Part shown: positions 42,709 to 44,930 of the stretch, piece after piece
How the letters are laid out: every line of letters begins with the position of its first letter
How positions within the stretch are numbered: position 1 is the stretch's first letter
Source: a virus
Lineage: Duplodnaviria; Caudoviricetes
Direction: 5' to 3' (one strand)
IMG/VR virus record: IMGVR_UViG_3300028048_000089
Coordinates: 32,001-96,000 of that record
DNA length: 64,000 bases
The notes under the pieces: generated by a model
The model's database searches: none
Seen by the model: only the letters and a program-made list of their open reading frames with translations
Told to the model about the DNA's origin: nothing
Made by a program: the position numbers and the translations under genes

Positions 42709-42740
42709 AAAAAGCAACCAAATAAATTTAGTTGCTTTAA
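42709..42740 (-). terminator. intrinsic terminator after the tRNA
   Basis: AAAGCAAC...GTTGCTTTTT. Confidence 0.7.
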
Positions 42741-42742
42741 GT

Positions 42743-42818
42743 TGGTTACAGGGGGAGGACTTGAACCTCCGACCTCCAGGTTATGAGCCTGGTAAGCTAC
42801 CTCTGCTATCACCCTGCG
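42743..42818 (-). tRNA. initiator tRNA-fMet (CAT)
   Basis: cloverleaf CGCAGGG...CCAGG-CTCATAA-CCTGG...GGAGG-TTCAAGT-CCTCC-CCCTGTA-A-CCA; C1:A72 mismatch and A11-U24 initiator signatures; encoded CCA. Confidence 0.92.
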
Positions 42819-43002
42819 ATATCATCTTTAATAATTAGATTAGAATTGCCACTATCTAATCTCATTTGGGTTACATAAACACATAACGAATATAGTAGCA
42901 ATTCTTTTTAATGCTCTTAATAACATAGTTTCTCCAATCTAGGTTTTAACGAGTTTTTTCTTCTCAATTAGAGCAAGATTGGCTATGACATTTGTATTTC
43001 GG

Positions 43003-43121
43003 CGGGGATGGAGAGGTATTGCACCTCACAAACATTAAGATTCTTACACAGGACTTTTAATCATTTACCATGGACATGAAACCTTGTCGCTTAAATCATT
43101 TTCTACTTAAGTTACAACCCC
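43003..43121 (-). ncRNA. 119-nt tRNA-like / tmRNA-tRNA-domain-like RNA
   Basis: acceptor GGGGUUG/CAUCCCC, T-arm-like GAGG-UGCAAUA-CCUC, CUUAAGU/AUUUAAG arm then CGAC, AAGGUU/AAUCUU helix; no standard anticodon arm. Confidence 0.45.
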
Positions 43122-43123
43122 AG

Positions 43124-44222
43124 AAAGACTCCGAAGAGTCTTTATTCATAGATGTTACTACTGTGTATCGTTCGTTTGCACAGGGTTAGATTTCTCTAAC
43201 AAGGCAGGTAACTAGTCACGCTTTACATAGGGTTTATGATTCTCACTACCTAATACGTTTGACATTCGCTCATTCTCATCAGTGACTCGTGCAGGATTTT
43301 ATAACTATTGATAATAGTTCCCTGGACCCATGTCAGCTGGAACCTGCTTTTCTAAAAGTATTTTTCACCTAATTAGATGGTTTCTGTTTCTTATGTTTCT
43401 GTTGTTACCGTCTCCTACTGCTTTGGTAGATTGCTTCAGGTCAGTAGTCAACCTTTTGTTTAGAGGTCCGCTAACTCTAAACATAGAAAGGAGGTAAGGT
43501 TTATATTAACTCTATTGCTAGAGTAATATACAAAGTTATTGACAATTTTTACTCTCCTCAGCAGTGTCTTAACAGTTATCTGGTAAGAGTAGGATTGCTC
43601 ATGAGCCTCCGGCCTAATCGCGGTAGATATTTAATCATGAGTGTACTTGTTCCGATACATCATCACTGAATGTAGATTGTGAACCTCTCGGCAAACATTT
43701 TATTTATGTTTAATTTGAAGGCTCAACCCTTCTTGCAGGAGTAAATTCCTGGAGTTCCCTGGCTTTAATTTCTCTATACCATTCTACGCCATCTCTGGTA
43801 GGCACCAGCACATCTCCCTCATCTAAGGAAGATACAGGAAACGAACCCGTTATTTTTTCATAGATGGTTAATTACCTATTGCTAATGGTTATAAGCCAAA
43901 CATTAGTGTAGTGACTGAAACTATACTACTTTGTTCTAGATTTTACTCTAGTTACGGAGTTTAACCGCTTTTCTAATGCCAATAGGCTGAGGTAGTCCAC
44001 TGACTTGCTTAATGCAAACAACATTCAGTACTGGGTGGTGGAACTATTTTTTTTAGTTAAGAATATTCACTTGTGTACTCTCCGCAACTTACGGGCTCTG
44101 TCTATTCTGCAGAAGACATTCCACGATTAGGAGTTTATGACGGTGTAGTAGATTGCGACTCTGTATCTTATATACCTCATATTTCAAAGGACTCAAAGAC
44201 CCCGTCCATTCTTTCTTAACTA
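43124..44222 (-). ncRNA. ~1.07-kb highly structured non-coding RNA (family unknown; GOLLD-like size and context)
   Basis: own promoter at 44227-44256; ORF-free; GC-richer than coding DNA; GNRA and cUUCGg hairpins; long-range helices 44121-44131/43613-43623 and 44021-44029/43665-43673. Confidence 0.6.
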
Positions 44223-44226
44223 TTAT

Positions 44227-44256
44227 ATTATACAAGATTTCTCTTGATAATACCAA
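44227..44256 (-). promoter_or_regulatory. sigma70-type promoter for the ~1.07-kb RNA
   Basis: TTGGTA-18 nt-TATAAT (TTGTATAATA box). Confidence 0.55.
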
Positions 44257-44267
44257 CTTTTTTTATA

Positions 44268-44808
44268 CATCTTATCATTCAATGAGTTCATGACTCTCAC
44301 TGTTTTACTTACCATTTGATGTAAAGGAATTTAACCTAAGCCTTAAAATAAGTTTGCTCATACTGATAGGATATCGGTGTCCTATTGTCATCAATTTTAT
44401 AATCACACAAGTTTCCCACCATCTAAGACAGTGACAAAGGATATTGTGTAATTAACATCATAAGGCACATCAATTAAGACATGCCCTTGAAAGTCCCAAC
44501 ATTAGTTGGCAATAGGTCCTTTATTATCCTATGTTTTAATCCATCGCATTAGTTTATCACTAGTCACAAGCAATAGATGAGGTATCCAAGATTTTTTCGT
44601 AATGTGCTTTACTTTCTCCACTTGGTTGGAAGATGTGAGAGACACCTTTTCAGTTCTTTGTCTTGAACAGATATTGCAGTAACATTATCTCACATTATGT
44701 AACCACTCAAGATTCCTATCCCTTTAACGAATCTTCCTGGGGCATGTCTTCTCAATTAAGTTAGGTCTTCATGCTTGTCTAACAGCAGTTTTTTCTATAA
44801 ACGAGATG
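44268..44808 (-). ncRNA. ~540-nt large structured RNA, ROOL-like
   Basis: 5' and 3' ends pair (CAUC-UCGUUUA / UGAAUGA-GAUG); perfect 11-bp helix 44740-44750/44476-44486; further hairpins; size and tRNA-adjacent phage context fit ROOL. Confidence 0.55.
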
Positions 44809-44844
44809 TCGCCCGTTTTGCAAGAATGTTAACTTGCACATATT

Positions 44845-44872
44845 ATTATACAATCTTTTTTCAAAATTGCAA
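44845..44872 (-). promoter_or_regulatory. sigma70-type promoter for the RNA locus
   Basis: TTGCAA-16 nt-TATAAT. Confidence 0.65.
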
Positions 44873-44921
44873 TAATATTTTTAAAGAAAAGTATATAAAA
44901 ACAATACCTCTCTTTTCATTT

Positions 44922-44930
44922 AATTTAGCA
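44922..44930 (-). promoter_or_regulatory. putative late promoter motif pointing into the RNA locus
   Basis: TGCTAAATTAAATGA with no downstream ORF. Confidence 0.65.

Follow-up and report, generated by a model that had tools for sequence, protein, structure and literature searches.

We analysed a gene-free interval in a window of 64,000 nucleotides (nt), positions 32,001 to 96,000 of the 115-kb IMG/VR virus record IMGVR_UViG_3300028048_000089 (Duplodnaviria; Caudoviricetes; completeness estimate 70%). All genes of the window lie on the minus strand and its GC content is about 29%. The interval, 42623-44991 (2369 nt), separates two minus-strand genes, one encoding 374 amino acids (aa) upstream (44992-46116) and a gp13-like neck gene (41906-42622, PF26809) downstream. 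It holds at least five structured RNA modules with covarying helices, named here A, B, C, D1 and D2, which are inherited independently of each other, followed by a lineage-specific tail E and a transfer RNA (tRNA) gene (Table 1). The locus is transcribed at a high level.

The interval does not code for protein. Its longest open reading frame (ORF) under genetic code 11 has 55 aa, and no ORF of at least 60 aa was found under any of three genetic codes (code 11, TAG=Q, code 4); the two alternative codes were rejected as no frame opens. It is also the largest gene-free gap of the window, and its GC content (0.351 for the gap, 0.370 for the core, compared to 0.291 for the rest of the window) tops that of all windows of equal size. 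An ORF-free stretch in gene-dense surroundings, richer in GC than coding DNA, was what a preliminary description made from the letters alone had reported, and both properties hold. Substitutions in the blocks of the locus showed no codon periodicity (p = 0.10-0.78) and indels of 1-2 nt were frequent, whereas the adjacent gp13-like gene was strongly codon-periodic in the same test (p <= 1e-7).

Table 1. Features of the locus and its borders (window coordinates; promoter and terminator entries are predictions).
Feature	Position	Strand	Basis or remark
Terminator-like hairpin at the end of the 374-aa upstream gene (upper locus border)	44952..44978	-	scan called the stem on the plus strand
Phage-specific promoter-like motif TGCTAAATT ('late motif'), opens the locus	44922..44930	-	motif scan
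Putative sigma70-type promoter P1, TTGCAA-16-TATAAT within TTGTATAATA	44845..44872	-	promoter scan; expected start near 44838
Module A	44425..44838	-	core 44660-44425; further conserved block 44819-44747
Module B, ~125 nt	44262..44385	-	hairpin with conserved loop ACACC and long 3' hairpin
Putative sigma70-type promoter P2, TTGGTA-18-TATAAT within TTGTATAATA	44227..44256	-	promoter scan; conserved in L007
Module C	43703..44219	-	conserved core 44046-43703; 5' 170 nt lineage-specific
Module D1, ~155 nt	43540..43694	-	conserved in L006 (87%); in L048 with internal deletion
Extended -10-like P3, TTGTATATTA (variant of TTGTATAATA)	43524..43533	-	motif scan; exactly at the start of block D2
Module D2, ~365 nt	43158..43522	-	GCAA-capped hairpin, 16S-tail copy, covarying hairpins, long-range helix
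ACCUCCUUUCUA, 12-nt copy of the 16S rRNA 3' tail (anti-Shine-Dalgarno)	43484..43495	-	D2 linker between the GCAA hairpin and a covarying hairpin
Module E, lineage-specific tail	42819..43157	-	window and near-identical L004 only; includes cUUCGg hairpin 43143-43124
Initiator-type tRNA-Met(CAU), CCA encoded	42743..42818	-	ARAGORN; Rfam tRNA 39.4 bits, cut-off 29 bits
Intrinsic terminator, 12-bp stem and T run	42711..42738	-	sole strong terminator-like site inside the locus
TGCTAAATT copy ahead of the gp13-like neck gene (lower locus border)	42661..42669	-	motif scan

Structured modules with covarying helices

Base pairs were counted as compensatory when both sides had changed, and slid pairing partners as well as 500 shuffles served as controls. 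Since RNAalifold misses most helices when partial or short copies are in the alignment, we scored helices that were defined manually. In module A, aligned from 8 sequences, 98.5% of the cells were paired compared to 30-44% with slid partners, none of the 500 shuffles reached the observed values, and 10 of the 25 pairs were compensatory. The module contains an H-type pseudoknot formed by CUCCA/UGGAG and CCAAG/CUUGG, both stems of which are fully compensated in the relative L006 (CUGCA/UGCAG and GUAUG/CAUAC). One of its hairpins varies as GUAA/UUAC, GUAG/CUAC and GUUG/CAAC, another as AUAGG/CCUAU, CUGGG/CCCAG and AUGAG/CUCAU, and a long-range helix AUCUAU/AUGGAU reads AUCUAC/GUAGGU in L059.

Module C is likewise represented by 8 aligned sequences, with a ninth copy (L060) identified by blastn only. 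Its closing helix P1 (AGUUCC/GGAACU) is followed by P2, which closes a variable arm of 32-128 nt and occurs as UUGC/GCAA, UUGAU/AUCAA or UUAGU/ACUAA, and by P3 (GCCUAUUG/CAAUAGGU), which encloses a variable domain. The helix list also includes P3b, and one hairpin covaries as UGG/CCA, CAG/CUG and GAG/CUC. P4 (ACCA/UGGU) carries an insert of 83-85 nt in the window and a GAAA or GUAA cap in relatives, P5 is CAGGA/UCCUG and in L050 UAGGC/GUCUG, and the terminal hairpin P6 combines a conserved loop GUUGWG with compensated stems. In the 3' part of the module 91.7% of the cells were paired (26-43% with slid partners), and the covariation score of 0.232 versus 0.134 was reached by none of the 500 shuffles.

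For module D2 three full-length and two partial sequences were available. Among its 57 predicted pairs, 12 are compensatory, 4 changed on one side and 8 are broken in the three full-length sequences. One helix varies as CUACUG/CAGUAG, CCACUU/AAGUGG and ACACUA/UAGUGU, and a helix spanning about 140 nt is compensated at three consecutive positions (GCAGGU/ACCUGC, GUCAGU/ACUGAC, GGUUGG/CAACC). The sequence CUGAUGAG within D2 was considered as a hammerhead core and rejected, being not conserved in L011 and without a match in Rfam. Module B, with 81-82% identity in L010 and L047, has 3 compensatory pairs, and D1 has 5 and a single broken one. Tail E has a minimum free energy (MFE) z-score of -2.18 and is covered by an RNA contig down to 42897 (run X4, see below); as it has no homologues, it is outside the reach of a covariation test.

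The preliminary description had read the interval as two giant structured RNAs with GCAA- and cUUCGg-capped hairpins. The hairpins are present, the one with GCAA being conserved, and the two RNAs resolve into the separately inherited modules. Covarying helices in homologues, which that description had set beforehand as a check, were found in A, C and D2. Judged from these comparisons, the locus is conserved under RNA-type selection.

Relatives and mosaic order of the island

Related loci were gathered through the gp13-like gene. L005, L006, L007, L010, L011, L013 and L047 have a stretch of 0.85-2.9 kb free of genes at this position or close to it; in L005 and L011 one ORF intervenes before the gp13-like gene. 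The island is absent at this site in L037 (80% protein identity), L038 and more distant relatives; no gap is seen at the gp13-like gene of the distant relatives L001 and L003. On the contig carrying P0007, a 79%-identical relative, a gene for a 294-aa GIY-YIG homing endonuclease and a 93-aa ORF take the place of the island just upstream of the gp13-like gene. The site looks like an insertion hot spot.

Comparison by blastn revealed colinear mosaic blocks of 85-100% identity with unalignable inserts between them, whereas the adjacent gene is only 73-82% identical. Order and content of the modules vary among L005-L013, L047, L050, L059 and L060: L007 has essentially module C alone, L011 has A and D2 without C, and in L050, a contig of a Bacilli metagenome-assembled genome (MAG), C precedes A in a different gene context. 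A pattern scan of IMG/VR added two further large phages of rumen type with module A, L059 (116 kb) and L060 (161 kb), the latter on the same contig as L003. In L059 (64-5571) the module is situated between tRNA genes of a 23-tRNA island, on the tRNA strand, and L060 has a 16-tRNA array (2324-5592) with modules A, C and others about 1.9 kb downstream, again on the tRNA strand. The IMG/VR pattern scan gave 21 chance matches only for block b2 of module C and no matches for a two-block pattern of D2, and a blastn search against 50,697 phage records returned only matches to tRNA-Met. Among 106 genomes of the MAG's order, blastn detected the modules in that MAG only, which indicates that they travel with phages and not with host chromosomes.

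Further elements were seen in these islands. A 33-nt element, GTCCAGAGGATGACGGACTTCGGTTCTACTCCC, is 91-100% identical at varying positions in seven otherwise diverged islands (L006:3877-3913, L005, L007, L010, L013, L047 and L060 at 8442-8477). The window lacks this element, which matches nothing in Rfam and might represent a small ribozyme, a processing site or a site for protein binding. Relatives also share at least five more conserved non-coding blocks that the window does not have (L006 gap 1050-1147, 1147-1249 and 1788-1942; L010 gap 1386-1458; L047 gap 1205-1392), so that the pan-island repertoire exceeds the window's five modules. L010 contains a second, partial copy of the first conserved block of module C (4616-4650), about 430 nt upstream of the complete module, and in L050 ARAGORN called a tRNA-SeC(TCA) at 4668-4762 on the minus strand, about 1.3 kb upstream of the RNA modules.

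Transcription and promoter-like signals

Twenty public bovine and sheep gut runs held the stretch, eight of them metatranscriptomes from four studies. We compared four runs (X2, X4, X6 and X19) over 41000-46500, using contig depth as the measure of expression. In the bovine RNA run X2, contigs identical to the window covered 43158-43820 at depth 376, 43791-44044 at depth 372 and 44015-44791 at depth 192, and contigs of the same phage over the flanking genes had depths of 4-8. In X4, bovine RNA from another study, a single contig of 1873 nt spanned 42897-44766 at depth 170 and a second one 44738-44902 at depth 51, with flanks at 0-3. The DNA run X6 was flat at about 8 over both the locus and its flanks. 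In sheep RNA (X19), the diverged module C of a relative (~7% different) was found at depth 100-200. By contig depth, the locus thus stands about 25-90 times above the neighbouring phage genes in rumen RNA. As this excess is confined to the gap, occurs in two studies and is absent from DNA, the interval is transcribed far above its neighbours. The preliminary description had staked its proposal on transcription of the interval, which these contigs bear out.

Weak hints at RNA ends came from the same contigs. Adapter letters abut 43158 in the X2 contig, a position coinciding with the 3' border of D2, one X4 contig reaches 44902, about 19 nt downstream of TGCTAAATT, and a contig stops at 44791. 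No X2 contig covers 42840-43023, and this missing cover was not counted as evidence. The minus strand was taken as the RNA strand because of the G.U pairs in the helices of modules A and C, which would be A.C on the plus strand, the strand-specific promoter motifs, and the co-orientation of the modules with tRNAs in the window, L047, L059 and L060. A non-coding locus giving rise to several RNAs from the minus strand, as originally envisaged, agrees with all these data.

The motif TGCTAAATT occurs 13 times in the window compared to 2.5 expected occurrences, always on the minus strand and mostly 20-45 nt before the start of a structural gene; it probably serves as a middle or late promoter of the phage itself. 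It recurs within about 80 nt of the start of the gene-free stretch in eight of nine distinct relatives, mostly followed after some 30-45 nt by an extended -10 sequence, and all have it once more ahead of the gp13-like gene. The decamer TTGTATAATA has eight exact copies on the minus strand of the window, all intergenic, and none on the plus strand. The late motif at 44922 and the two minus-strand sigma70-like sites ending at 44845 and 44227, all named in the preliminary description, were recovered by the motif and promoter scans, and both sigma70-like sites carry TTGTATAATA. These findings support a position of the locus downstream of a phage-specific motif and of sigma70-type promoter-like sites, which we regard as putative promoters.

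Elsewhere in the window, TGCTAAATT sites on the minus strand include 17972, 23349, 33482, 35500, 47682, 51781 and 62701, mostly just upstream of structural or cargo genes. The six other exact TTGTATAATA sites, at 204, 9838, 11108, 13896, 16134 and 16227 (minus strand), are intergenic in a region of small genes; they probably act as early promoters for the host polymerase and resemble in type those at the RNA modules. Upstream of the locus, a 2608-aa protein (51796-59622, minus strand) contains an ADP-ribosyltransferase domain of polyvalent proteins (PF18760, E = 1.2e-12), which fits an injected 'cargo' polyprotein.

Relation to known RNAs and possible function

The locus ends, as the preliminary description had stated, in an initiator tRNA and a terminator. 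The ARAGORN cloverleaf has the C1.A72 mismatch and the D-stem pair A11:U24, two initiator features, and of the three initiator G:C pairs of the anticodon stem G30:C40 and G31:C39 are present, with A29:U41 at the first, a position that is variable among Mycoplasma-like lineages. Genes resembling tRNA-Met(CAT) are present as well in the L047 and L006 islands and within the L060 tRNA array. Compared by eye in the alignment, they have A72 and a mismatched or weak 1:72 pair, which is G.A in L047 and A.A in L006. A tRNA mimic that had been proposed at 43003-43121, within tail E, was not confirmed: ARAGORN made no call there by default or at ps80 and only malformed calls with 2-nt anticodons at ps60, and Rfam gave no tRNA or tmRNA match at E<=10.

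The modules match no RNA family of Rfam 15. A cmscan of all 4227 families over 42500-45100, a check the preliminary description had itself suggested, recovered the tRNA alone at gathering score, with no credible match at E<=10; in the loci of six relatives (E<=1), one more tRNA was all that matched. The ROOL model (RF03087) matched nowhere on the whole 115-kb record, and this same model also matched none of 14 control genomes; at its gathering score of 99.1 bits there was no match in the window or in the six relatives' loci. GOLLD, OLE, pRNA, tmRNA and CRISPR repeats had no match at E<=10 in that stretch, nor had the models of group I and II introns and self-cleaving ribozymes, including group-II-D1D4-1 (RF01998). 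Hence none of the modules is ROOL or GOLLD, the two families to which the interval had at first been likened.

Abundant large phage RNAs in tRNA neighbourhoods, of the ROOL and GOLLD type, are a known kind. ROOL, a large, multi-junction, pseudoknotted non-coding RNA of unknown function, was discovered in cow rumen. Its genes reside in phages and prophages of Bacillota, frequently close to tRNA islands, and in one strain of Ligilactobacillus its abundance reportedly equals that of 16S rRNA (PMC5737381, PMC12286853). The modules share its habitat, its setting in phages and tRNA islands and a very high RNA-contig depth; unlike ROOL, which is one RNA of about 580 nt, the locus is a shuffled array of several modules of about 125-510 nt. 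GOLLD, found in phages and prophages near tRNAs, with one member downstream of a Met-tRNA and some with tRNAs in a linker, binds ribosomes in pull-downs and rises in expression during lysis (PMC12286853). The window locus resembles it as a phage RNA locus near tRNA-Met. It differs in consisting of several unrelated modules with putative promoters of their own, whereas a GOLLD RNA is one molecule longer than 800 nt whose 3' domain is conserved. OLE RNA contains a perfect copy of the 16S anti-Shine-Dalgarno tail that is needed for binding of bS21 (PMC12054373). D2 has a conserved 12-nt copy of the same tail, which in the predicted fold is partly paired with AAAGG; unlike OLE, a chromosomal RNA of extremophilic or anaerobic Bacillota that works with membrane proteins, D2 is phage-borne and has no OLE match. 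In the tRNA region of phage T4, the stable non-tRNA species 1 and 2 are co-transcribed with tRNAs and released by tRNA-processing enzymes, and to our knowledge no function has been assigned to them. These species are small with tRNA-like 3' parts, unlike the modules, which are larger, not tRNA-like and equipped with putative promoters of their own. We found no description of the module RNAs in the literature, where papers are not searchable by sequence and the unnamed 29-151-nt candidates of a catalogue of 10,000 csRNAs (PMC10690425) lay outside the comparison. As far as sequence and family models can tell, the modules are new RNA families in the ROOL/GOLLD niche and not members of either family; what looks new is their modular, cassette-like make-up, the copy of the 16S tail and the repeated association with an initiator tRNA.

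The reading we favour, with reasonable though limited confidence, is that of an accessory non-coding RNA island in a large low-GC rumen phage, whose stable RNAs would, as their likeliest role, act on translation initiation. The support for action on translation is indirect and consists of the conserved copy of the 16S 3' tail in D2 and the recurrent initiator-like tRNA-Met. The copy, ACCUCCUUUCUA, is identical in the window, L010, L006 and L013, and the stems next to it change. The 17-mer 16S end GGATCACCTCCTTTCTA is found in 11 of the 106 genomes of the candidate host order and in none of the reversed control. In the predicted fold, CCUUU of ACCUCCUUUCUA pairs with a downstream AAAGG, which suggests a partial duplex like that of Shine-Dalgarno and anti-Shine-Dalgarno sequences. 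In the mechanism we propose, host RNA polymerase would start at the three putative extended -10 promoters, with further transcripts arising later from the TGCTAAATT promoter of the phage itself. Transcripts from all four start points would read through to the terminator at 42711, and RNases, among them those that process tRNAs, would then release stable RNAs from the precursor, with a candidate end at 43158. The 16S-tail copy of D2 might titrate ribosomal protein bS21, as the OLE RNA mimic does, or Shine-Dalgarno leaders, the phage would supply its own initiator tRNA, and the larger modules A, C and D2 may act as RNA-only scaffolds like ROOL and GOLLD. That the stable RNAs engage the host's translation-initiation machinery is tentative, and we hold it with some doubt. 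More doubtful still is the complete picture of a phage cassette for the takeover of translation initiation, in which D2 would be a 16S-tail decoy for bS21 or Shine-Dalgarno leaders, the initiator tRNA would sustain phage initiation, A and C would form RNA-only assemblies, and these interchangeable parts would be traded via tRNA islands by phages of small-genome Bacilli.

Several points weigh against this interpretation. The alignments hold only 3-8 sequences, the covariation of module A stems largely from the one diverged copy in L006, and 8 of the 57 predicted pairs of D2 are broken. Contig depths give neither strand nor exact ends nor true levels, and the host is deduced from one MAG contig only. 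Since L037 and L038 do without the island, it is dispensable. The match of ACCUCCUUUCUA was noticed post hoc, and part of it is predicted to be paired (mean unpaired probability 0.48-0.63). As the phage genes use Shine-Dalgarno sites themselves, an indiscriminate sponge would also hit them.

Other explanations share part of the evidence. The modules may be decoys for host nucleases that target RNA or tRNA (anticodon nucleases, VapC-type toxins cutting initiator tRNA, MazF-type ACA cutters), with the phage tRNA-fMet replacing a cleaved host tRNA. Phage tRNAs do counter tRNA-cleaving defences, and the accessory, patchy and shuffled content typical of counter-defence loci, the very high contig depth of the module RNAs, the linkage of an initiator tRNA to modules in several lineages and an A-rich stretch of D2 with repeated ACA would all fit. 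However, neither CRISPR repeats nor ToxI-like repeats have a counterpart in the locus, nothing but the real tRNA is tRNA-like, a decoy substrate would not need such complex folds of many helices with long-range pairs, and no defence system or target was identified; we regard this explanation as unlikely. Slightly less probable in our view is that the modules are cis-acting spacers of tRNA operons, which would serve as processing scaffolds or stabilisers for tRNA maturation and have no function in trans. The location of module A between same-strand tRNA genes in L059, that of modules A and C downstream of the tRNA array on its strand in L060, and the terminator that the window locus shares with the tRNA at its end are as expected of such spacers. 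On the other hand, this would be 2 kb of RNA for a single tRNA in the window, L007, L010 and L013 have modules and no tRNA at all, the modules have predicted promoters of their own, and the high RNA depth lies over the modules themselves, with an apparent end at 43158 that precedes the tRNA by 340 nt.

We give a similarly small chance to selfish mobile RNA-gene cassettes, or relics of ribozymes or introns, that spread by recombination or homing and are of little use to the phage. Their mosaic order, the blocks common to otherwise distant phages, the different genomic site in L050 and L060, the GIY-YIG gene at the same site in one relative and the lack of the island in half of the close relatives are consistent with this origin; it is opposed by the lack of any match to models of group I, group II or self-cleaving ribozymes at E<=10, and ORFs, terminal repeats and target duplications are absent as well. 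Core sequences are more tightly conserved than the neighbouring structural gene, and strong dedicated promoters, as predicted, together with extreme RNA levels indicate that the phage makes use of the modules. The only rival that is clearly disfavoured is decayed coding sequence or neutral intergenic DNA that is passively read through from strong promoters. It could account for the tail E without homologues and for the MFE z-scores of sliding 200-nt windows, which are mixed, mostly unremarkable and weak when taken alone. Compensatory changes in many helices, blocks more conserved than the adjacent gene and conserved across unrelated genomic contexts, and the lack of codon periodicity make it hardly credible.

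The island for which we favour an action on translation initiation adds several unrelated RNA families to the niche of ROOL and GOLLD, and its modules behave as exchangeable cassettes. Since their contig depth is far above that of neighbouring genes in rumen RNA samples, material and data for their study already exist. In D2, the conserved copy of the 16S anti-Shine-Dalgarno tail, in the same locus as an initiator tRNA, provides a clear starting point for functional tests, and the question of the role of giant RNAs in phages thereby becomes open to concrete binding and deletion experiments. Altogether, the findings suggest that tRNA islands are general nurseries for structured RNAs.

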